The notes beneath the pieces were generated by a model. It saw nothing but the letters and a program-made list of their open reading frames with translations. It made no database searches and was not told where the DNA came from. Position numbers and translations under genes: made by a program. This document shows positions 5,377 to 45,185 of a stretch of DNA of 64,000 nucleotides, one piece after another; within the stretch, counting starts at the first letter, position 1, and each line of letters begins with the position of its first letter. Origin of the DNA: a phage. The stretch is from sequence record OZ335964.1. The stretch is one strand, 5' to 3'.

Positions 5377-5535
5377 TTACTTAATGATACTTACTTTACC
5401 AGATCCATGACAATGAGCGCAACACCCATCACCACGCAATCCTGTTCCGTTACAGTGTTTACACTTCTTCAACGGTAAAGCCATTATAGCAAATAAAGCA
5501 ATAATGAATACCGAAACTAAATTCTCAATAATCAT
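5377..5535 (-). CDS. small membrane-anchored protein with two DnaJ-type CxxCxGxG zinc-finger repeats
   Basis: 52 aa not in ORF track: MIIENLVSVFIIALFAIMAL (TM) then CKHCNGTG...CAHCHGSG; start overlaps stop of upstream glutaredoxin. Confidence 0.4.
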   Translation of the reverse strand: MIIENLVSVFIIALFAIMALPLKKCKHCNGTGLRGDGCCAHCHGSGKVSIIK

Positions 5536-5794
5536 AAATCGCCCTCAGTTCTTTATAGCCTCCAATGTGCTCGTTGTCAATGAATATCTGGGGGTATACA
5601 AACCGGAGGCTCTTTGAGTTCAGCCTCCCCGCCAGTTCTTCAATCATATCACGGTCGGGAATAATGTCAACCCCGACCTGCTTGAATACTGGTTTAAGTG
5701 TATACGGAATACCCAGATCATCCAGTAGCTTCATTGCACTAATACAACCATAACAATGATAAGCCTCTTTCGGTATACCGTATATCTCGATCAT
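5525..5794 (-). CDS. nrdH: glutaredoxin-like protein (NrdH-like)
   Basis: 89 aa; CYGC redox motif, YPQIFIDNEHIGGY glutaredoxin signature; position between gp55 and nrdG as in T4. Confidence 0.8.
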   Translation of the reverse strand: MIEIYGIPKEAYHCYGCISAMKLLDDLGIPYTLKPVFKQVGVDIIPDRDMIEELAGRLNSKSLRFVYPQIFIDNEHIGGYKELRAIYDY

Positions 5795-9971: not shown

Positions 9972-10003
9972 TCAACACCCCAAAACGAAAAAGCCGACCC
10001 TTT
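9972..10003 (-). terminator. intrinsic terminator after nrdD
   Basis: GC hairpin with GAAA loop and U-run on minus strand. Confidence 0.6.
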
Positions 10004-10018
10004 CGGATCGGCTAAAAA

Positions 10019-11881
10019 TTACATGTGCTTAACGCGGTTTACCATCTCGGAGTGTTTCCCGTGGTTAAATGGACGCAGATCAACAGATCCAAGATATCCA
10101 CTAACGCGCCGGATAACATTCATCTTTTCCAGATTGTCATTGCCGCAATCAGGACAAACAAAACCAGACTCGGTCGCTCTCATTTCCTTAGTAGATCCGC
10201 ATACATGACATACATCAGAAGGAGTATTAACACCGAAGTAATGCAATTTATCCATTGCATAGTCTACTACAGTTTCAAGACCTTTCAGGTTGTTTTTCAT
10301 GTCTGGGAACTCAACATAAGAGATCATGCCACCGGACGCCAGCCAGTGATAATCTTTCTCAAAGTCGATTTTCTCAAACGGTGTGACTTTCCGGTCTACG
10401 TCAAGATGGAATGAGTTGGTGTACCAGTCTTTATCGGTAGCACCCTTAACAATACCAAATTGCTCTCGATCCAGTCGATTAAATCGATAGCAAAGGCTCT
10501 CGGCTGGCGTACCGTAAAGACTAAACCCAAGTCCGGTTTCGTCCTTCCATTTTTCAGTATAATGACGCAAGATCTTAAGAATATGTTTACCGTATCGCTG
10601 CGCATCTTCCGAATCAAACGGATGAACACCAAACAGGACGCTCAATACCTCATGTAAACCAATATATCCAAGAGAGATACTAGCGCGACCATCTTTCAAC
10701 ACTTCCAAAATTTCATCGTTTTGATGAATACGGAAAAATGCACCTTCTGTATACAGCACAGGAGCAACATTGGCTTTAGCCCCTTTTAAAGCGTCTACGC
10801 GACTCATCAGCGCATCAAAGCAAATAGGCATACGATTAGCTAGCTCTTGTTCGAATAGCTCAATTCTGCGCATTACAGACGCTTTACCAGCACGACGCGC
10901 GGCAATAAGAGCAATACGCGGAAGATTCAGAGTCACAACACCTAAGTTATTACGTCCGTCTAATACTTCTTCGCCTTTCTCATTATGCCACACACCCAGG
11001 AAGCTACGACAACCCATCGGGCTAACCGGAACACTAGATCCAGTGATACTACGGTTATTCTTCGCAGAGATATAATCAGGGTAAAGACGCTTACTAGAAC
11101 ATTCCAATGCAAGTTGCTTAATGTCGTAGTTCGGATCTTCCGGTTTAAGGTTTAATCCTTCTTCTAAGAACATCACCAGCTTAGGAAACACCGGAGTGAT
11201 ACCATCTTTACCTAAACCTTTAGTTCGAACGTTCAGGATCGCTTTCTGAATCAGTTTTTCTTCCCAGCTAGTACCCATACCAAAGGTTAAAGTCACAAAA
11301 GGCGTTTGACCGTTGGTAGAGAACAAAGTGTTGATCTCATATTCCAACGCCTGATATCCGTCTAACGTTTCTTTTTCTGTCTTCTCTTGTGCATAGAGAG
11401 TATCAGCTTTGATTCCGTAGGTTTCGGCATCAGCAAGGTGTTTATGATATGTTTTCTCAACATACGGTGCTAACACCTGATCGATGTTTGCAATTGTGGT
11501 CCCGCCATATTGATGACTTGCCACCTGTGCGATAATTTGAGCGGTTACAGCACAAGCAACGCCGATTGATTTCGGACTTTCGATTTGTGCACTACCCAAT
11601 TTAAAACCATTCTCTAACATGTCTTTGAGATTAACAAGACAGCAGTTAGTAAACGGCATAGCGGGTGCATAATCCATATCATGATAATGAATATCACCGT
11701 CTACATGCGCTTTATAGATGTGCTCAGGTAACACGGTTTTAGCAATCTGTTTAGACACAGCACCAGCAATCAGATCTCGACGTGTCGGGAATGTTCGCGC
11801 GTCTTTGTTCGCGTTCTCTTTGCTTACTTCGTTTTCTTTACCCGTTGCGATCTCTGTAATGTCTTTGATTAGTTTTTCCAT
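10019..11881 (-). CDS. nrdD: anaerobic ribonucleoside-triphosphate reductase NrdD (glycyl radical enzyme)
   Basis: 620 aa; C-terminal RVSGYLG glycyl radical motif and CPDCG zinc site. Confidence 0.9.
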   Translation of the reverse strand: MEKLIKDITEIATGKENEVSKENANKDARTFPTRRDLIAGAVSKQIAKTVLPEHIYKAHVDGDIHYHDMDYAPAMPFTNCCLVNLKDMLENGFKLGSAQIESPKSIGVACAVTAQIIAQVASHQYGGTTIANIDQVLAPYVEKTYHKHLADAETYGIKADTLYAQEKTEKETLDGYQALEYEINTLFSTNGQTPFVTLTFGMGTSWEEKLIQKAILNVRTKGLGKDGITPVFPKLVMFLEEGLNLKPEDPNYDIKQLALECSSKRLYPDYISAKNNRSITGSSVPVSPMGCRSFLGVWHNEKGEEVLDGRNNLGVVTLNLPRIALIAARRAGKASVMRRIELFEQELANRMPICFDALMSRVDALKGAKANVAPVLYTEGAFFRIHQNDEILEVLKDGRASISLGYIGLHEVLSVLFGVHPFDSEDAQRYGKHILKILRHYTEKWKDETGLGFSLYGTPAESLCYRFNRLDREQFGIVKGATDKDWYTNSFHLDVDRKVTPFEKIDFEKDYHWLASGGMISYVEFPDMKNNLKGLETVVDYAMDKLHYFGVNTPSDVCHVCGSTKEMRATESGFVCPDCGNDNLEKMNVIRRVSGYLGSVDLRPFNHGKHSEMVNRVKHM

Positions 11882-20251: not shown

Positions 20252-20542
20252 TCAAACGGTAGTTTTGCGAAGATGGTCATTACATGCTTTTAATGCATCA
20301 GTCGCGGTGTCATAGCGAGTATTATCATAGCACCAGTAACCATCGGTCAACTGATAAATCAATCCATCCCTTTTAGCTTCGATGAAAGATAACTCTTTGA
20401 AAGTTTCTACTTTCTTTGCTGATACTCCACGGTCACGGCGCTTATAGAGTTTAGCTAAAATGCGTTCAGCTTGTTCCTCTTTATCACCAGACAGATCCCA
20501 AATAATGTTGCGGATATGTTTGATTAATTGTTCAGTGGTCAT
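20252..20542 (-). CDS. hypothetical protein
   Basis: 96 aa; AAGGAGAATCAAAG leader; promoter-stem-loop upstream. Confidence 0.5.
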   Translation of the reverse strand: MTTEQLIKHIRNIIWDLSGDKEEQAERILAKLYKRRDRGVSAKKVETFKELSFIEAKRDGLIYQLTDGYWCYDNTRYDTATDALKACNDHLRKTTV

Positions 20543-20571: not shown

Positions 20572-20599
20572 ATTATAGCACTATGACTTTCATTGTCAA
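20572..20599 (-). promoter_or_regulatory. sigma70-like early promoter (TTGACA-N16-TATAAT)
   Basis: minus strand; preceded by intrinsic terminator and A-tract. Confidence 0.55.
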
Positions 20600-20602
20600 C
20601 AA

Positions 20603-20638
20603 CTAAAAACAAAAAAGGCTACCCCTAAGGATAGCCCA
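20603..20638 (-). terminator. intrinsic terminator after gp38-like gene
   Basis: GGCUAUCC..GGGUAGCC hairpin + U6 on minus strand. Confidence 0.65.
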
Positions 20639-20643
20639 TAAAA

Positions 20644-21444
20644 TTACACGCGAGCACCGTAGATCGTGCCTACTTTATCCCAGCGAGGGGCATTGCCAGT
20701 AACAGCCTTACCAGCTGCACCAGCACCACTGGCATTATAGTTTGATGTACGAACGGCAGCACCACCAGCCGCACCAACGTTACCACCAGCACCACTCATG
20801 TTATTACCATCAACGGTTACTTTACCACCTGCGGCGGTTAACGATGCATTACCACCATTACCACGACCACCACGACCACCTGTACCGAAAGGACGACCAC
20901 CACCGCCGCCTGCAACGCCAGCTAATGTGAAGTTATAGTCTATGGACCATCCGCCGCCGCCACCGCCACCGCCAGCAATTGCACCATTATTCGTAATACG
21001 TAAGCGTGTACCGATGCCATTATTGATCGCTGTACCCCCGGCGGTCGCACGAACTAAAGCATCTCCAGATCCACCACTAGACCCAGATCCGTTACCGCCA
21101 CGACCATATACAGTGACGCCGGAATTAATGATAAGAGTTACATATTCATTAGTTAATGAGCTAGGGAAATCCAGACACGGAACACCAGCAGAATTAGAAA
21201 CAAGATCCCCGGTAATAGTAACTACTACCGGAGTAGACCCCTGTGATTTTAGATAGTTAATCAGAGTATCTTTATTGTAGTTGTGGTTTGCACCAATGCT
21301 ATAATGAATCTCTTTAGAGCGTCCGACCATCGCCGACATATACGCCGGACGACCTAAGCGAACAGCTTGCATTGCGGCGCTCATCCACCGTTGACCAGTC
21401 TCAGCAACAGCCGATGATCCTACCCAACCTGCTTTAATTGCCAT
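20644..21444 (-). CDS. 38: gp38-like receptor-recognising adhesin with glycine-rich motifs (T2-type)
   Basis: 266 aa; N-terminus MAIKAGWVGSSAVAETGQRWMS resembles remembered T2-type gp38; C-terminal half has poly-Gly tracts (GGGGGGGG, GGGGGRPFGTGGRGG); GAGGAAACC RBS. Confidence 0.65.
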   Translation of the reverse strand: MAIKAGWVGSSAVAETGQRWMSAAMQAVRLGRPAYMSAMVGRSKEIHYSIGANHNYNKDTLINYLKSQGSTPVVVTITGDLVSNSAGVPCLDFPSSLTNEYVTLIINSGVTVYGRGGNGSGSSGGSGDALVRATAGGTAINNGIGTRLRITNNGAIAGGGGGGGGWSIDYNFTLAGVAGGGGGRPFGTGGRGGRGNGGNASLTAAGGKVTVDGNNMSGAGGNVGAAGGAAVRTSNYNASGAGAAGKAVTGNAPRWDKVGTIYGARV

Positions 21445-21457
21445 AAGGTTTCCTCAC

Positions 21458-21480
21458 AAGAAAAGCCCCATTTAAGGGGC
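21458..21480 (-). terminator. intrinsic terminator
   Basis: GCCCCUUAAAUGGGGC hairpin + U-run on minus strand, 14 nt before gp38-like RBS. Confidence 0.6.
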
Positions 21481-21498
21481 ATTGATTGATAATATTAC

Positions 21499-21720
21499 TT
21501 AGATGATCTCTGCTTCACCATTCAGGAAGAAAGACCATGTTTTGTTAGGATAGCGAAGCGCCCATGATTCAGCAGTTTTAACACCAGCTTCGAACAATTG
21601 ACGGCTGGTCACTTTAGCCATACCATCTTCGATGGCAACGTTTTCAATAATCATCGGGTACTTAGCTCCACGCATGAAACCGAAGCCAGCGGAAGATTTG
21701 ATAATTTTAACAGTTGCCAT
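21499..21720 (-). CDS. hypothetical protein
   Basis: 73 aa; promoter-stem-loop upstream, terminator downstream. Confidence 0.5.
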   Translation of the reverse strand: MATVKIIKSSAGFGFMRGAKYPMIIENVAIEDGMAKVTSRQLFEAGVKTAESWALRYPNKTWSFFLNGEAEII

Positions 21721-21761: not shown

Positions 21762-21790
21762 ATTATGCAATAACACCGGATCGCTGTCAA
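21762..21790 (-). promoter_or_regulatory. sigma70-like early promoter with stem-loop (TTGACA-N17-CATAAT)
   Basis: minus strand; conserved leader CATCGAAACGAGATACAC. Confidence 0.5.
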
Positions 21791-22093: not shown

Positions 22094-22440
22094 GCCAGAC
22101 CTCGCAAAACACTAATAGCATAATCATGCTGGTTATTCATAATATCAATTGCATTGTGATAACGAGCTAAACCATCAAGAATAAATTCTTGTTTATCCTG
22201 TTTTAGCTTAGTATCACGCGCAGCCATAAGAGCATCAAGAACAGGTCCAAAGTGATTATCTAATTCATCTTCGGTTGCAATGTTTCCTATTGCCTCGTCG
22301 ATCCGTGATTCTAATTCTTGCTTTTCGTTGATCACTTGCTGGGTATATTCCAACACATCAAGAATATCGCGGGTAACGTCGCCATGATAAGGTATTCCCG
22401 CATGAAGGTGATCAATTAGTCGTTGAATGTCAATGTTCAT
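22090..22440 (-). CDS. hypothetical protein
   Basis: 116 aa; ATGA overlap with neighbour. Confidence 0.5.
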   Translation of the reverse strand: MNIDIQRLIDHLHAGIPYHGDVTRDILDVLEYTQQVINEKQELESRIDEAIGNIATEDELDNHFGPVLDALMAARDTKLKQDKQEFILDGLARYHNAIDIMNNQHDYAISVLRGLA

Positions 22441-23003: not shown

Positions 23004-23032
23004 ATTATGCTATACCCTATTCTTGTTGTCAA
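23004..23032 (-). promoter_or_regulatory. sigma70-like early promoter (TTGACA-N17-CATAAT)
   Basis: minus strand; directly after terminator of the 712 aa gene. Confidence 0.5.
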
Positions 23033-23035
23033 CAC

Positions 23036-23069
23036 CTAAAAACGAAAAAAGCCACCCTTTCGGATGGCT
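23036..23069 (-). terminator. intrinsic terminator after 712 aa gene
   Basis: GCCAUCC-GAAA-GGGUGGC hairpin + U6 on minus strand. Confidence 0.65.
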
Positions 23070-23078
23070 TTTGATTAA

Positions 23079-25217
23079 TTAAGGATTTCGGCCAGGGTAA
23101 TGCTTAAATCGACCGTAACCAGTTTCAATGCTCATATCTCGTTGACGCACAATCGCCCAATAACCGTTGCAGGAATCTTGAAGATATAGATCCTTACCTT
23201 TTAGGAACTCATTAAAAATAGTGATCTGCCAATCATAATAGACCGCATCAGCAAGACTACCCATCCAACCGTGCGGATCTTCCATCAGTTCGACAAGTTC
23301 ATCAATTACCCAATATGGACAAGGGCTAAATTTACCCTTACTAAAATCGCTGAACATAGTAACGATCTTGACTTCCGGTCGAGGCTGATCGGGAATATCT
23401 GGACGTTTGTTAACTACGACTTGCACATATTTTGTGTAGCCTACAATTTCACCTTCATCTAAGTTAGTGTTATTGTTTTTGTCGGCAAATGCAACAAATT
23501 TGTAAACACCAGAATCATTTAATGTTGCATTAGCTTTACGATATACCGGAACACTGGAATCTGCAATAGGTAATTTAATACCACTTTTACTAAATTCATA
23601 GGTCGGCACATAGTTAGATGGCGGTTTAATCATGGTTGCTTCCAGCACCAACGGATCACCCTCAGTAATTTGCACCGGATGCGGACCGTCAAATTCCATA
23701 TTAGGAATTACTTCAACTTTATAGGTTGCACGTCCTGCAATATCATATCCGGTATGCGCACTATGAGGATCTCGGCTAGGACTATCGCGATATTCATGCG
23801 ACCAGATACCATTATGTTCTTTATCCGCCGCATCAGTGATCTTATATTCTTTCGTTTCAATCGGCAATTCTGTTACAAGAACATCGTTTTTCAAAATTGC
23901 TAACGAACGAGTTTGAGTCGGATCATTACTTGCTGGAGGTTCTGGATCAACAATTTTAATAACAATAGGTTCCCCAACCTCAATACCGCTATAATCATGC
24001 TCGACGTCATAGATATCTAACATACGGCGATCATAAAATAACGGGCGAGAAGTTGGAGTTCTCTGCGGATCATCATCACGCGCAGGAGCTACCAACAATT
24101 GCAGGGCTACACTATTATCATATTGCAATTTCTCAAGACTAATACGGTCATAACCAGGATCACCATATTTCTTGCTTTGTAATTGCGTACCACCTAACAT
24201 CCACGTAAAGTAGACATTATTTGTTAATAAACCATAATGTCGGTTCCATGAATTATCAACAGGGGAAACTGGCATATCAATACTAACAGAAGACCCAGAA
24301 GGATAACGAAATTCAATAGCAGAAAAATCTCGGCTAAAAAATTCGTTTTCCTTGACGTTAACGCGGAATCGATGGCGCTGACCTTCCAGATACGATTCAC
24401 TACTACCAGGACCATTTTCAACCTTATAGGAACGAATACAAGCGACATAATCACCTGCATCTGCTTCGGTAGCATGTTTCGTCACATATAAAGTTTTATT
24501 CTTTGATTCATAAACCAAAGTACCATCGCCACGTTCCAGACGATAACGAACTATGGTATGTTCAGCGTCATTTGGGGCATCGTCTTCTACAGTATAATAG
24601 GCAGGTGCATATTTTTGTACATTGAATACAGCTAAATTTTCTCGAATTGTTGCTGTAAACGGATATACAAATTTAACATCACCTGTTTCGTCGCTTAATT
24701 CCATTCGATAAAGACCGGAAAATTCAGGCCATGCGAATTTTGCAATTTTAAATTCACGATGGTCCAATCCCAAATCACCATCTACGGAATCAACTAGACC
24801 ATTATTATAATACAAGTCAACAGAGATATTAGCAGGAATATTACTACGAAAAACAATTTTCGCTTTAAGTTCATCACCAATATTAAATGATGTCGGAGGA
24901 TATACATGTTCAACATATGGATTATCAAATAACTTAAATGTAAAGTTTTCCGTGCCAATATCGATAGAATCACCACTAAATGATGTGTCGCCTAGCGCAT
25001 AACCTCGAACGTTTACAGACCATCCGGTAACATCGTCTTCTTTAACGGAATCCAATGTAAATGTCGGAGAGGCACTTGTTGCTATAATCTGGTCATTTTT
25101 CTTCCAGACATAACCTTTTTTCGGTTTTGTTGAATCAGGGCTTTCATCAACAATACAGCAGCTAAAATCGTGCGGCATCCAAATCATATTATTGACCGTG
25201 GTGTTTACTACTGCCAT
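23079..25217 (-). CDS. large protein with Ig-like domain signatures (possible virion decoration or adhesin)
   Basis: 712 aa; DxGxYxC-type Ig motifs (EADAGDYVACI, LNDSGVYKFVAF); strong AGGAGGATTC RBS; own terminator. Confidence 0.55.
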   Translation of the reverse strand: MAVVNTTVNNMIWMPHDFSCCIVDESPDSTKPKKGYVWKKNDQIIATSASPTFTLDSVKEDDVTGWSVNVRGYALGDTSFSGDSIDIGTENFTFKLFDNPYVEHVYPPTSFNIGDELKAKIVFRSNIPANISVDLYYNNGLVDSVDGDLGLDHREFKIAKFAWPEFSGLYRMELSDETGDVKFVYPFTATIRENLAVFNVQKYAPAYYTVEDDAPNDAEHTIVRYRLERGDGTLVYESKNKTLYVTKHATEADAGDYVACIRSYKVENGPGSSESYLEGQRHRFRVNVKENEFFSRDFSAIEFRYPSGSSVSIDMPVSPVDNSWNRHYGLLTNNVYFTWMLGGTQLQSKKYGDPGYDRISLEKLQYDNSVALQLLVAPARDDDPQRTPTSRPLFYDRRMLDIYDVEHDYSGIEVGEPIVIKIVDPEPPASNDPTQTRSLAILKNDVLVTELPIETKEYKITDAADKEHNGIWSHEYRDSPSRDPHSAHTGYDIAGRATYKVEVIPNMEFDGPHPVQITEGDPLVLEATMIKPPSNYVPTYEFSKSGIKLPIADSSVPVYRKANATLNDSGVYKFVAFADKNNNTNLDEGEIVGYTKYVQVVVNKRPDIPDQPRPEVKIVTMFSDFSKGKFSPCPYWVIDELVELMEDPHGWMGSLADAVYYDWQITIFNEFLKGKDLYLQDSCNGYWAIVRQRDMSIETGYGRFKHYPGRNP

Positions 25218-25923: not shown

Positions 25924-25984
25924 AAGTCATTCCCCCAGATTAAAAATTTCAAGTATATTTATAATCTGGGGATATATTTACGCC

Positions 25985-43385: not shown

Positions 43386-45185
43386 ATGCTAATGTTTAAT
43401 AACTCCGTTAAATGGTTTACCGGAATTGTAGAAAACAGGGAAGACCCATTAATGCTGGGGCGCGTTCAGGTTAGGATTCATGGTATACATCCTTCGCTAT
43501 CCGCACACGGTGACATTCAAGGTCTTCCAACCGAAGATCTATTATGGATTACGCCAGTACAAGATATTACAAGTGCGGCGATCTCCGGTATAGGTCAAAG
43601 CCCTACTGGTATTGTTGAAGGTTCAATGGTATTTGGTTTGGCTTTAGATGAACGTTATTTAAACTGCGTTATTCTTGGTACTATTGCCGGACAATATACA
43701 GAGAAACCACTCACGACAGAAGGTTTTTGTGACCCTTCTGGTGCATATCCTCGTTATATTGGTAATGATGTTAATATTCTTGCTCGTGGCGGTATTAACC
43801 CAGAAACCGGACAAACAACAAAACCTGATAGTGTCTATATTCGAGATGAAAACACTGGAGTTGCCGTAAATCCAGACGACGAGCCATTAGACCAAATTCC
43901 GGTTGATGATAATCCTGATTTTACAATAGAAAAAATGCTGCGGGGCGATGAGGGATATCGCGAGAAATGGTATCTTGATTCAGAAGGATATCCGACAATA
44001 GGCATCGGGCATTTGATCATTTATAAGAAAACCAGTGATCTTGGTATTATCAATAATGAACTTTCTAAGCTGGTAGGGCGTGAAGTTACAAACGGAAGAC
44101 TTACAGCCGAAGAAGTTAGTAAAGTATTTGCTGACGATATAGAAAAGACTCGTCGTGATATGCGCAAACATCCACGAATTGCACCTGTCTATAATAAATG
44201 TAATGCCTCACGTCGTATGGCATTAGAAAATATGGCGTTTCAAATGGGTGTTGGTGGATTGGGTAAATTTAAGAATAGTCTTGCTGCGATGTTAGCGGAA
44301 GAATGGAAACAAGCCTATGATGGATTACGTCAATCTGTATGGGCTAATCAAACTCCAGGACGCTCCAGCCGTGTTTCTAAAATTATTTTAACTGGTAACT
44401 TAGAATCATATGGCGTAATTGCTCCAAAGAAAGAGGAATCAATTTCGGATGATCCGCGAGCACGTTTAAGAAATGCCCGTATTGCTGCCTATAAGACACA
44501 GAGAGCAGAAGAAGACCCAGAAGCACCGTTTACCCCACAAGACACACGAATCATGTTTAAAGAGCCTAAGAGTTCGTATTCTGCAAGGTATCCTTATAAC
44601 CATGTGTACGAGTCAGAGAGCGGTCATATTATCGAGATTGATGATACTCCTTCTCATGAGCGATATCATCGTAAACATCCTTCTGGTACATTTGAAGAAA
44701 CCAGACCGGACGGAACGAGGGTAGAAAAGATTGAAGGTGATGATTATCTAATCGTTAAACAAGGCCGTAAAGTAAACGTTAAGGGTAATTTGCAAGTTGT
44801 TGTTGAAGGTGACGCGCAAGTTTATTATATGGGTAATGTGATGCAAACCGTTGATGGTAACGTCACTGAATTTATTCGTGGCAATGTTAATCAGACCGTT
44901 GAAGGTACTGCTAACATGCATGTTGTCGGTGATGTTATCGCACAGCTTGACGCTAATTTGACGGCTAATGTCAAGGGTAATGCTGAATTAATGATCGAGG
45001 GTAACACTACAGAGACAATTAAAGGTAACTATGATTTAACCGTTGAGGGTAATTTTAATATGACCGTCAATGGCACTAAATCAGATCAGGTTAATGGTGA
45101 CTGGTCCCGTAATTGTGGTGCAAGCGTTAAAGATATTGCATCTGGTACAGTTAAAATTGATGGTAGCCGTATTGATCTTGGGTGA
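43386..45185 (+). CDS. 5: baseplate hub + tail lysozyme gp5 (cell-puncturing device)
   Basis: 599 aa; N-terminal OB-fold, central lysozyme domain (GYREKWYLDSEGYPTIGIGHL), C-terminal beta-helix V.G repeats. Confidence 0.9.
   Translation: MLMFNNSVKWFTGIVENREDPLMLGRVQVRIHGIHPSLSAHGDIQGLPTEDLLWITPVQDITSAAISGIGQSPTGIVEGSMVFGLALDERYLNCVILGTIAGQYTEKPLTTEGFCDPSGAYPRYIGNDVNILARGGINPETGQTTKPDSVYIRDENTGVAVNPDDEPLDQIPVDDNPDFTIEKMLRGDEGYREKWYLDSEGYPTIGIGHLIIYKKTSDLGIINNELSKLVGREVTNGRLTAEEVSKVFADDIEKTRRDMRKHPRIAPVYNKCNASRRMALENMAFQMGVGGLGKFKNSLAAMLAEEWKQAYDGLRQSVWANQTPGRSSRVSKIILTGNLESYGVIAPKKEESISDDPRARLRNARIAAYKTQRAEEDPEAPFTPQDTRIMFKEPKSSYSARYPYNHVYESESGHIIEIDDTPSHERYHRKHPSGTFEETRPDGTRVEKIEGDDYLIVKQGRKVNVKGNLQVVVEGDAQVYYMGNVMQTVDGNVTEFIRGNVNQTVEGTANMHVVGDVIAQLDANLTANVKGNAELMIEGNTTETIKGNYDLTVEGNFNMTVNGTKSDQVNGDWSRNCGASVKDIASGTVKIDGSRIDLG

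Follow-up and report, generated by a model that had tools for sequence, protein, structure and literature searches.

A mosaic gp38-type adhesin gene in the early-strand hyperplastic region of a Krischvirus

Introduction

The stretch of phage DNA analysed here, 64,000 nucleotides long and referred to below as the window, carries on its early strand an open reading frame for a glycine-rich protein of 266 aa. A first-pass annotation took the protein for an orphan gp38 adhesin, perhaps a second or spare host-range determinant or a tail-fibre tip relocated by cassette exchange. The locus raises the question of what this gene is, how it comes to lie away from the tail fibre genes, and when its product would be made.

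Determination of the receptor by gp38 at the fibre tip has been shown for S16 and T2-type phages (Trojet, 2011, and others). The displaced g38 of RB49-like phages has already been published (Trojet, 2011; npj Viruses, 2025; 2026 preprint), and the preprint places it ~55 kb downstream of gp37. The odd position is known for the genus, and the mosaic allele is the fresh detail reported here. RB49-like phages serve in therapy cocktails, and this gene offers the chief means of access to their host range; it is often still annotated as 'hypothetical' or 'assembly catalyst' because it does not adjoin g37. In T4-type phages a virion protein gene is not usually transcribed early. A point of wider interest is the supply of a structural protein from an early unit, without a late promoter, to late assembly.

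Results and discussion

The locus and its neighbourhood

The window comes from a Krischvirus (RB49-like) and shows 96.8% identity to phage JK32. The site is in the early-strand hyperplastic region (HPR), between tk/rI and dam/gene 49, and is surrounded by ORFans. The features of the immediate locus are as follows.

20252..20542, minus strand: 96-aa open reading frame, homologue of RB49 ORF078c, downstream of the cassette (open reading frame list; PHROG 14129)
20572..20599, minus strand: sigma-70 promoter TTGACA-16-TATAAT with TG, for the next open reading frame (12/12 match; GEC-3S promoter annotation)
20616..20637, minus strand: downstream intrinsic terminator, 9-bp stem, tetraloop, U-rich tail to ~20604 (fold)
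20644..21444, minus strand: gene 38, very probably the long-tail-fibre receptor-recognising adhesin (open reading frame; Pfam GP38 and Gp38_N; 6F45_D; AF2/Foldseek)
21451..21455, minus strand: Shine-Dalgarno sequence GAGGA, ~6-7 nt before the g38 ATG (read from the sequence)
21465..21480, minus strand: upstream hairpin GCCCC-TTAAAT-GGGGC followed by UUUUCUUGUG, a weak terminator or attenuator between the 73-aa open reading frame and g38 (fold)
21499..21720, minus strand: 73-aa open reading frame, homologue of RB49 ORF080c, first gene of a two-gene unit with g38 (open reading frame list; PHROG 7345)

The open reading frame starts with ATG, includes its stop codon within 20644..21444 and has the N-terminal sequence MAIKAGWVGSSAVAETGQRWMS; the span 20603-21480 given at first consists of this open reading frame and both flanking hairpins. 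A tblastn search over the window finds nothing like gp36 or gp37 and only this one gp38, which agrees with the early claim of an early-strand gene with no gp37-like neighbour. The usual synteny, with g38 directly downstream of g37 in a late tail-fibre operon, is absent from the window, and g37 lies beyond it; this synteny is typical of the adhesin family but does not define it. The baseplate module extends on the plus strand from gp5 at 43386 through gp12 and wac to ~60108. It starts ~22 kb from g38, and the distance of ~40 kb stated in the first-pass annotation is too large.

Identity of the open reading frame

The 266-aa protein matches Pfam GP38 (PF05268, E = 5.1e-70) over residues 45-266, covering profile positions 1-218 of 218, and Gp38_N (PF21721, E = 4.4e-18) over residues 1-40 of 40, both with scores far above the cut-off of 25 bits. 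PHROG 2056 is matched with E = 1.2e-93. The sequence of the S16 gp38 crystal structure (PDB 6F45 chain D) aligns end to end (E = 5.6e-49). These family matches are far beyond chance. An exact-sequence look-up of the protein gave no record; the nearest is P0001 at 98%.

The AF2 model (pLDDT 92.1, pTM 0.87) displays helices at residues 8-16, 21-27 and 36-39, followed by strands. In Foldseek the model aligns with 6F45_D at E = 4e-22 (TM 0.79/0.85) and with the PP01 gp38 receptor-binding domain 9V85_C at TM 0.92, normalised to the target; besides these two, the search against the PDB shows no fold at E < 1. The predicted structure thus has the three domains of the family, an N-terminal helical attachment domain, a beta-helix and a polyglycine-II sandwich.

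Glycine runs (GGGGGGGG, GGGGG and others) are found in the C-terminal two thirds of the protein, with short variable stretches between them, a pattern that the first-pass annotation noted for the C-terminal half. Among 57 homologues the glycine columns G114-117, G136-137, G158-164, G180-183, G218-221 and others are invariant or nearly so, and variation from allele to allele is concentrated between these motifs. The family has three conserved tryptophans at the apices of the attachment helices that dock into gp37; two of them, W7 and W20, are present, and the third position (W35 in S16) is Y34 here. Tyrosine is also found at this position in RB49 and JK32, and tryptophan in Lutter and T2-type proteins. 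Since RB49 gp38 is functional, tyrosine at the third docking position is evidently tolerated with a Krischvirus gp37.

Proline-rich open reading frames on the plus strand (20742-21256) are read as by-products of the glycine codons and coding sequence. A 'terminator' at 21233..21207 inside g38 was likewise taken as a by-product of the coding sequence.

The S16 and PP01 gp38 proteins (6F45 chain D; 9V85) share the helical attachment domain, the beta-helix and the polyglycine-II sandwich with hypervariable (HVS) loops, but are only 44-47% identical to the protein described here, with S16 W35 replaced by tyrosine and with other loops. T4 gp38 shares the gene name and the legacy label 'assembly catalyst', but has a very different sequence and is a fibre-folding aid only, T4 binding its receptor by the gp37 tip (literature). 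One reading of the locus would make the protein such a T4-type chaperone, a 'distal long tail fiber assembly catalyst' needed only for the folding of gp37. It would then not be part of the virion, and early expression would suit it. Legacy product names in the GenBank records of RB49, JSE and GEC-3S suggest this reading, as do the early strand and the lack of a late promoter. However, in sequence and in predicted fold, polyglycine sandwich included, the protein matches the adhesins of S16 and PP01, the RB49 record itself carries the note 'similar to T2 and RB69 gp38 adhesin', RB49 gp37 carries an intramolecular chaperone domain at its own C-terminus (Peptidase_S74, residues 871-930), and the host-range mutations of RB49 map to the HVS region. 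The chaperone reading is hardly credible. The best explanation, held with high confidence, is that the open reading frame is gene 38 of a Krischvirus (an RB49-like T4-type phage) and encodes a T2/S16-type adhesin capping the long tail fibre. The adhesin identity proposed at the outset is upheld.

For the allele in the window, location at the tip and determination of the receptor are predicted by likeness to RB49, S16 and T2-type gp38. In RB49 there is one gp38 monomer per fibre, and gp37 carries a self-cleaving C-terminal chaperone domain (Golomidova, 2022). By the S16/RB49 literature, gp37 would trimerise and cut off its own C-terminal chaperone domain, which exposes the gp37 tip. The three-helix domain at the N-terminus of gp38 would then plug onto this tip, and a monomeric gp38 adhesin would cap each long tail fibre. 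Host range would be set by the loops that separate the glycine-rich motifs, located at the distal end of the polyglycine sandwich, through their binding to an outer-membrane protein or the O-antigen.

The same locus in RB49-like phages

In RB49 (AAL15128), Phi1, JSE, JK32 and GEC-3S, g38 likewise has the ORF078c and ORF080c homologues as its neighbours on either side and is ~55 kb away from g37. The Krischvirus genes share the strand and the layout of promoter, small open reading frame, hairpin, g38, terminator and promoter. By tblastn, every listed Krischvirus relative has one place for gp38 in its genome, and in RB49, JK32 and similar phages the interval between g37 and t contains no g38. 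The RB49 g38 is a functionally proven host-range determinant, with the gp38 host-range mutants E230K and Y231S (Golomidova, 2022).

These observations bear on the suggestion that the gene is a spare or second host-range determinant, an extra gp38 in the accessory region beside a canonical g38 at g37, so that the phage would have two adhesins. The HPR site has ORFans around it and elements like PeSL (promoter-early stem-loop) on its flanks, and such elements are known to move accessory genes about; some Krischviruses do have g38 next to g37. But where g38 is canonical the HPR site is empty, the genomes examined with g38 in the HPR are without g38 between g37 and t, and the two states look mutually exclusive. 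In addition, relatives carry a single gp38, and the RB49 host-range mutations are in the HPR gene (Golomidova, 2022). The spare-copy reading is already largely refuted and is very improbable, and the terms 'orphan', 'second' and 'spare' do not fit the gene. Judging from relatives ~97% identical, it is predicted to be the sole long-tail-fibre adhesin gene of the phage, at the position usual for the genus.

A mosaic allele

The protein is only 69-71% identical to RB49/Krischvirus gp38 overall, but the first 51 and the last 21 aa are 96-100% identical. The coding region is divided into three segments.

21292..21444, minus strand: codons 1-51, Krischvirus-type N-terminal gp37-attachment domain, three predicted helices (DNA block identity; AF2 helices)
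20710..21291, minus strand: codons 52-245, exchanged segment with the predicted beta-helix and polyglycine sandwich with hypervariable loops (protein and DNA block identities)
20644..20709, minus strand: codons 246-266 and stop, Krischvirus-type conserved C-terminus (DNA 100% identical to JK32, 60-75% to Lutter)

In 40-nt blocks the DNA of codons 1-51 is 93-100% identical to JK32/RB49 and 50-70% to Tequatrovirus Lutter. For codons 52-245 the DNA identity is 30-85% to JK32/RB49, 62-100% to Lutter, 72-100% to a Krischvirus contig (L008) and 72-97% to a siphovirus-like large contig (L007). In protein blocks of 30 columns, the exchanged segment shows an identity to Lutter of 0.67 for columns 61-90 and 0.93-1.00 for columns 91-240, and the identity to RB49 drops to 0.43-0.60 past column 120. 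The allele is also present in the Krischvirus locus of L008 (98% aa identity).

From these sequence comparisons the allele is recombinant: aa 1-51 and the last 21 aa are of Krischvirus type, and residues 52-245 are from another lineage, Lutter/G8-like from about residue 91. Residues 91-245, approximately, are 93-100% identical in protein to gp38 of Tequatrovirus vB_EcoM_Lutter, G8, FJ1 and Hafnia phage IsaacDaniel. In contrast, the g38 of this group lies in the canonical late g37-g38-t operon, and its N-terminal docking domain is only ~57-70% identical. The shared region varies between 72 and 100% in DNA identity per block, and therefore either the exchange is of some age or its real donor has yet to be sampled. 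The DNA of residues 52 to ~117 is only 62-85% identical to Lutter and is not Lutter-like, which points to an unsampled donor lineage.

The segment swap is predicted to bring in a foreign receptor specificity while keeping compatibility with the phage's own fibre, the gp37 of which is taken from relatives ~97% identical. The RB49 protein lacks an 8-residue insertion found here (SGDALVRA region) and has other HVS loops. Because of these differences and of the different lineage of residues 52-245, the receptor probably differs from the one used by RB49 (OmpA or O-antigen).

A Krischvirus would thus have two routes to Tequatrovirus receptor specificity. One, seen in the window, is a swap of residues 52-245 of its own displaced g38; the other is import of a whole block of g37 tip and g38, followed by loss of the displaced copy. 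The two routes define safe engineering junctions, with the first ~51 and the last ~21 residues retained.

Promoters, hairpins and time of expression

The downstream terminator (20637..20616) is strong, with the tail U6GU5 and z = -3.75, and 0/200 shuffles fold as well. The upstream hairpin (21480..21465), with a 5-bp all-GC stem, a 6-nt loop and the tail UUUUCUUGUG, is weak. Hairpins are present on both sides of the gene as first described, but only the downstream one is a strong terminator. The upstream hairpin is conserved in L008 and is annotated as a terminator in GEC-3S; an analogous hairpin is found 5′ of g38 in Lutter, G2494 and L007. Two further features concern transcription.

21762..21790, minus strand: sigma-70-type early promoter TTGACA-17-CATAAT, the nearest upstream of g38 (11/12 match; GEC-3S annotation)
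25956..25963, minus strand: nearest same-strand late-promoter motif TATAAATA, upstream of rI and 4.5 kb upstream of g38 (motif scan)

Upstream of g38 only sigma-70-type promoters are found, and the position of the nearest one is the same in L008. The absence of a nearby upstream TATAAATA was stated correctly in the first-pass annotation: on the minus strand from g38 to 25956 neither this motif nor ATAAATA occurs. The only late-promoter site with one mismatch within ~4 kb of g38 in that interval is TATGAATA at 22134, inside an open reading frame. A hidden late promoter for g38 was sought by exact, 7-mer and 1-mismatch scans and discarded, as these show nothing plausible within ~4 kb upstream. 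Literature searches gave nothing usable on Krischvirus transcriptomics/RNA-seq or virion proteomics.

Transcription of g38 most likely starts at the sigma-70-type promoter 21790..21762 with partial read-through of the weak hairpin, and gp38 would be made early, in small amounts, and wait for the late-made gp37. This early-expression model is a weak one. A lesser but real chance is given to g38 being a true late gene. Its transcripts would then come from the rI late promoter (25956) by read-through, or from a late promoter that departs from the consensus and escapes recognition, and the sigma-70 promoters in front of g38 would have no bearing on virion assembly. All other T4-type virion genes are late, and the motif at 25956..25963 has a counterpart in Pl:48756, a same-strand late promoter predicted ahead of RB49 rI (Nolan, 2006). 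The upstream hairpin has a stem of only 5 bp, and a similar g37/g38 hairpin in the late operons of other phages is evidently read through. However, the 4.5 kb between the rI promoter and g38 contain a strong terminator (23072..23047, stem of 11 bp) and, after it, another early promoter. The late-promoter motif is also strongly depleted genome-wide, so that real sites should stand out, and the scans up to one mismatch gave only the site inside an open reading frame.

Escape of g38 from the inactivation of early mRNA by RegB, suggested by a Shine-Dalgarno sequence lacking GGAG between two neighbours that have it, was rejected: GGAG is upstream of only 24/82 early-strand and 4/19 late-strand open reading frames, and its absence is uninformative. 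A hairpin pairing the g38 Shine-Dalgarno sequence and AUG is no better than shuffles (z = -1.56).

Empty sites and the PeSL element

Comparison with G2248 and FL20 defines a segment absent from 'empty-site' Krischviruses.

20604..21498, minus strand: hairpin, Shine-Dalgarno sequence, g38 and terminator, ~895 nt (versus G2248, FL20)

In these two phages TTGTTGACA-CGGGGAGAAATCCCCG-TATAAT comes immediately after the ORF080 stop, the empty allele reading TTGACA-CGGGGAGAAATCCCCG-TATAAT. The insertion junctions are the ORF080 stop codon and the -35 box. The sequence is contiguous across the site, i.e. empty, in 14/59 Krischvirus records; the other 45 are split there and are not empty.

In the window the terminator 20637..20616 is directly followed by the promoter 20599..20572, forming an element of PeSL type. 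PeSL joins a sigma-70 promoter of consensus type to a GC-rich stem-loop and is described in the hyperplastic region (Arbiol, 2010). The g38 unit has two properties of a PeSL cassette, a flanking promoter/stem-loop composite and an indel polymorphism among close relatives with junctions in the PeSL; a further property of such cassettes is excision as an encapsidated mini-circle. The siphovirus-like contig (JAASOS010000034.1, 176.7 kb) carries the same unit of g38 open reading frame and terminator, and the unit stops there at an identical nucleotide past the terminator. The terminator is 92% identical to that of the window, and a gp37-like fibre is present in this contig. As to relocation by cassette exchange, the indel at the PeSL and the exchange of the receptor part with a Tequatrovirus-type gp38 partly bear the idea out.

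A tentative proposal, possible and short of probable, is that the g38 open reading frame with its 3′ terminator forms a portable host-range cassette, recombining at promoter-stem-loop elements within Krischvirus and across phage morphotypes. In Krischvirus it would be expressed from early sigma-70 promoters, and gp38 would be an early-made virion adhesin stockpiled for late assembly.

The direction of the change can also be read the other way, with the canonical g37-g38 arrangement ancestral in Krischvirus and the HPR copy a later PeSL-mediated insertion that spread, not a native state lost in some lineages. Compared with the empty site, the HPR unit is cleanly inserted, its near-identical counterpart in an unrelated siphovirus-like genome indicates that the unit is mobile, and 'independent acquisition by HGT' is also weighed in the 2026 preprint. 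But the empty-site Krischviruses examined carry an imported T2-type g38 adjoining g37. The canonical copy of G2494 is of T2/T6 type, 45-49% identical to the RB49 type, and together with the g37 3′ end shows 88-94% DNA identity to Tequatroviruses, which indicates recent import. Moreover, the RB49-type N-terminal domain is found only at the HPR position and in the siphovirus-like contig, and most records (45/59) are not empty at the site. An ancestral canonical arrangement is rather unlikely.

A 107-aa open reading frame after g37 in KFS-EC was considered as a g38 remnant or intermediate and rejected, as it shows weak glycine-rich similarity only (E ~1e-3 to 1e-2) and no Pfam hit.

The g38 unit resembles the PeSL cassettes of RB49/phi1 (Arbiol, 2010), a paper in which g38 is not mentioned. 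In both, the gene is flanked by a sigma-70 promoter of consensus sequence next to a GC-rich stem-loop, a bare PeSL is the alternative allele, and presence/absence polymorphism occurs in the HPR as for ORFans. The cargo differs, being in this case an essential virion gene and not an ORFan.

Identity of the gene 38 product

Gene 38 (g38) and the features to which it is related are as follows.

43386 to ~60108, plus strand: baseplate genes gp5 to gp12 and wac
23079-25217, minus strand: 712 aa open reading frame between rI.-1 and small open reading frames, followed by a strong terminator and an early promoter
23072..23047, minus strand: strong terminator, between the late promoter site at 25956 and g38
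23032..23004, minus strand: sigma-70-type promoter (11/12)
21790..21762, minus strand: sigma-70-type promoter (11/12), ahead of a 73 aa open reading frame
20604..21498, minus strand: g38 unit (hairpin, SD, g38, terminator), ~895 nt, between the ORF080 stop codon and the TTGTTGACA box
21480..21465, minus strand: weak hairpin GCCCC-TTAAAT-GGGGC, then UUUUCUUGUG
20644..21444, minus strand: g38 open reading frame read from the sequence, ATG start, 266 aa, N-terminus MAIKAGWVGSSAVAETGQRWMS
20637..20616, minus strand: strong terminator, 9-bp stem with U-rich tail, z = −3.75 against shuffled sequences

The g38 product (gp38) displays the Pfam motifs GP38 (E-value = 5.1e-70) and Gp38_N (E-value = 4.4e-18), matches PHROG 2056, 'tail fiber protein; host specificity' (E-value = 1.2e-93), and aligns end to end with the S16 adhesin crystal-structure sequence (6F45 chain D, E-value = 5.6e-49). 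The AlphaFold2 model, for which 57 homologues were used, has high confidence (pLDDT 92, pTM 0.87), and its only fold matches in the PDB are S16 gp38 (TM 0.79/0.85) and the PP01 gp38 receptor-binding domain (TM 0.92, target-normalised). Thus the open reading frame is real and the first-pass annotation was correct in calling it a gp38 adhesin. It had also stated that no gp37-like gene is adjacent, and no gp36-like, gp37-like or second gp38 sequence is found anywhere in the window; its distance of about 40 kb to the baseplate module is in error, as the baseplate genes start ~22 kb from g38.

Proline-rich open reading frames antisense to g38 (20742-21256, plus strand; e.g. MDHPPPPPPPPAIAPL..., 104 aa) are rejected as genes and represent the mirror image of glycine codons (GGN/NCC). 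A 'terminator' at 21233..21207 within g38 is likewise rejected and is coding sequence.

Position of g38 in Krischvirus genomes

The region shows 96.8% identity to Shigella phage JK32, and RB49, Phi1, JSE, GEC-3S and similar phages show 93–96% identity; all, JK32 included, belong to the genus Krischvirus. An annotated gene 38 is found at exactly the same place in JK32 and RB49, in the interval from tk-rI to dam-gene 49 and between homologues of RB49 ORF078c and ORF080c. The GEC-3S record is annotated with the same layout of promoter, small open reading frame, terminator, g38, terminator and promoter. The RB49 tail-fibre operon has the order g34-g35-g36-g37-ORF251w-t, without g38.

By tblastn there is a single gp38 place per genome in every listed Krischvirus. 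Thus g38 is neither an orphan nor a second or spare determinant, as had been suggested, but is predicted to be the only adhesin of the phage's long tail fibre, located where the genus normally has it. RB49 host-range mutants carry E230K, or E230K and Y231S, in this gp38 as their sole changes (Golomidova et al., 2022). The same authors describe gp38 as a monomer on gp37, attached once the self-cleaving C-terminal chaperone of gp37 is removed; the Peptidase_S74 chaperone domain of RB49 gp37 is confirmed here.

A displaced g38 is already known for RB49-like phages. The displacement was published by Trojet et al. (2011), Krischviruses with gp38 away from the holin are reported in npj Viruses (2025), and a 2026 preprint places Krischvirus gp38 'approximately 55 kb downstream of gp37'. 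The additions reported here are incremental: a mosaic allele, the precise limits of the cassette, 14 empty sites among 59 records and a siphovirus-like carrier.

Presence and absence of g38 at the PeSL site

A site-spanning probe was run against 59 Krischvirus records, GenBank/RefSeq duplicates included. It is contiguous, denoting an empty site, in 14 records (G2248, G37-3, G5211, G2494, FL04, FL15, FL20, MIZ4, MIZ5, KMB43, kvi, LF73P4, Skers and UPWr_E1) and split in the other 45. The empty allele has TTGTTGACA-CGGGGAGAAATCCCCG-TATAAT immediately after the ORF080 stop codon (positions 1794-1854 in both comparison loci, L011 and L012); this sequence, also written TTGACA-CGGGGAGAAATCCCCG-TATAAT, carries a stem-loop within the spacer of the promoter. 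With a GC stem-loop in the spacer of a predicted sigma-70 promoter, the empty allele conforms to the PeSL (promoter-early stem-loop) definition of Arbiol et al. (2010). Compared with the empty allele, the window promoter spacer at the g38 site (flanks 20572-20637 and 21465-21498) no longer has the stem-loop.

Several empty-site phages carry ~850 extra bp, an annotated adhesin, between g37 and ORF251w-t; this insert is found in kvi, phiS, G2494, G5211, FL15, FL20, MIZ4/5, KMB43, LF73P4 and Skers. In the empty-site phages examined, a T2-type g38 of Tequatrovirus derivation adjoins g37. The G2494 insert is a T2/T6-type gp38 that shares only 45–49% identity with gp38s of the RB49 type and of the window type. 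Its DNA, taken together with ~900 bp at the 3′ end of g37, shows 88–94% identity to Tequatroviruses (e.g. WL-3, ESh28, PYps5T), which identifies it as a recent import. The recent import next to g37 suggests that the displaced position is native for the RB49-type g38 and that the empty site is a secondary loss; the reverse direction of loss and gain at the PeSL site is retained as a rival. ORF251w as a replacement for g38 is rejected, as both coexist in G2494.

KFS-EC (MH560358, 98605-98928; 1607-1930 in the excerpted locus L014) has the displaced g38 and an extra 107 aa glycine-containing open reading frame directly 3′ of g37. At this would-be g38 position the sequence is not recognisably gp38 (E ~1e-3 to 1e-2) and gives no Pfam match.

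Mosaic structure of the allele

The best protein matches to the window gp38 are Tequatrovirus gp38s, those of Lutter, FJ1, G8 and Hafnia phage IsaacDaniel (84–86% identity), whereas Krischvirus gp38s show 69–71% overall. Unlike the window g38, the g38 of these four phages sits in a canonical g37-g38-t operon. Block-wise comparison shows residues 1–51 to be of Krischvirus type (DNA 93–100% to JK32/RB49 vs 50–70% to Lutter), as are residues 246–266 with the 3′ flank (100% to JK32). Between residues ~91 and 245 the protein has 93–100% identity to Lutter and, past residue 120, ~43–60% to RB49; this region spans the end of the beta-helix and the polyglycine sandwich with all hypervariable loops. 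The DNA of residues 52 to ~117 is close to neither group (62–85%), which leaves the actual donor unsampled.

The 5′ junction lies immediately past three attachment helices (8–16, 21–27 and 36–39 in the AlphaFold2 model). The N-domain displays the Krischvirus signature W7, W20, Y34, whereas the Y34 position is occupied by a third Trp in S16, T2 and Lutter. Retention of this N-domain would be consistent with a requirement for docking on the gp37 of the phage itself.

Exact look-up found no record of an identical protein; a 98% variant, P0001, occupies this Krischvirus locus in L008, a contig of 65 kb. A mechanism in which specificity segments are exchanged between conserved motifs has been described (Tetart, 1998; Trojet, 2011), and partial gp38 swaps were reproduced by experiment in the 2026 preprint. 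The first-pass proposal of a tip relocated by cassette exchange is thus partly right: exchange stands both for the PeSL-bounded gene unit and for the receptor-binding segment.

Hairpins, promoters and expression

Both terminator-like hairpins said to bracket g38 are present on the minus strand, the upstream one weak and the downstream one strong. In all contexts examined (Lutter, G2494, the siphovirus-type locus L007 and the window), g38 is preceded by a hairpin that separates it from the upstream gene; the upstream hairpin therefore resembles a feature common to g38 genes, with transcription reading through it, rather than an insulator. L008, the closest carrier of this g38 allele, shares with the window a promoter, the hairpin, g38, its terminator and the perfect promoter, but has a different upstream open reading frame. 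This is a 111 aa DUF7238 sequence just 5′ of g38 (5458-5793), compared with the 73 aa ORF080c homologue in the window (21499-21720). The L008 junction falls within the 73 aa open reading frame, whose last ~130 nt persist as non-coding sequence, with promoter and hairpin kept.

The promoter-like sites ahead of g38 are of sigma-70 type only (21790..21762 and 23032..23004). Neither TATAAATA nor ATAAATA is found on the minus strand from g38 to 25956, in agreement with the first-pass annotation. This is meaningful because late motifs are strongly depleted across the window: TATAAATA occurs 4 times vs 6.9 expected (exact sites 25956(−), 35941(−), 42780(+) and 53593(+)), ATAAATA 12 times vs 26.5, and the one-mismatch motif 80 times vs 138, below all 100 shuffles. 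The depletion suggests selection against spurious late promoters.

Early transcription from the 21790 promoter with attenuated read-through of the upstream hairpin is the best inference for g38 expression. Transcription would start at 21790 and the attenuation would give a low amount of gp38, the need being ~6 copies per virion. Supply of g38 mRNA by late read-through is a less likely but serious rival. The nearest late site, 25956, upstream of rI and the counterpart of the predicted RB49 late promoter Pl:48756 (Nolan et al., 2006), is separated from g38 by the strong terminator at 23072..23047. The imported g38 of other Krischviruses sits in a late operon, and for this reason either timing seems viable. 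The g38 SD (GAGG) pairs with CCUU just before the AUG in the minimum-free-energy fold (21444-21460, minus strand), but this 8 bp hairpin, with several G-U pairs, is no better than shuffled controls (z = −1.56).

The g38 unit on a siphovirus-like contig

Outside the T4-like phages, two assemblies encode a 96% identical variant, P0002: the 'E. coli' contig JAASOS010000034.1 (176.7 kb) and a Logan contig of 53.8 kb. Both may come from one sample.

L006/L007 (JAASOS010000034.1 121385-142185; Logan SRR11307973_94), 10001-10801: g38
L006/L007, 5676-9296: fibre

The context is a siphovirus-type module with a lambda-like portal, a protease-capsid fusion, an 808 aa tape measure, a pb9-like protein and a 1258 aa gpJ-like protein, the closest relative of the last being in the 141-kb Escherichia phage DCP80 (39%). 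By megablast, the remainder of the locus matches nothing in the phage collection. The g38 DNA is 72–97% identical to the window per block over the whole open reading frame. Homology begins at the ATG, runs through the 3′ terminator (92%) and ends exactly at the end of the Krischvirus insertion. One gene upstream, beyond a 158 aa open reading frame, is a 1206 aa fibre with 72% identity to RB49 gp37 over residues 71–977 (DNA 76–78%). The gp37-like fibre, together with a gp38 that has a window-like terminator, indicates that a predicted Krischvirus-type gp37/gp38 pair crossed between morphotypes, in either direction.

Another indel of the hyperplastic region

The 712 aa open reading frame is another hyperplastic-region indel: RB49 lacks it, whereas JK32, G2248 and L008 (715 aa in the last) carry it. 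Its C-terminus shows a weak Ig-like, Hoc-like match (PHROG 1149, E-value = 4e-6; Pfam Ig_3 below cut-off).
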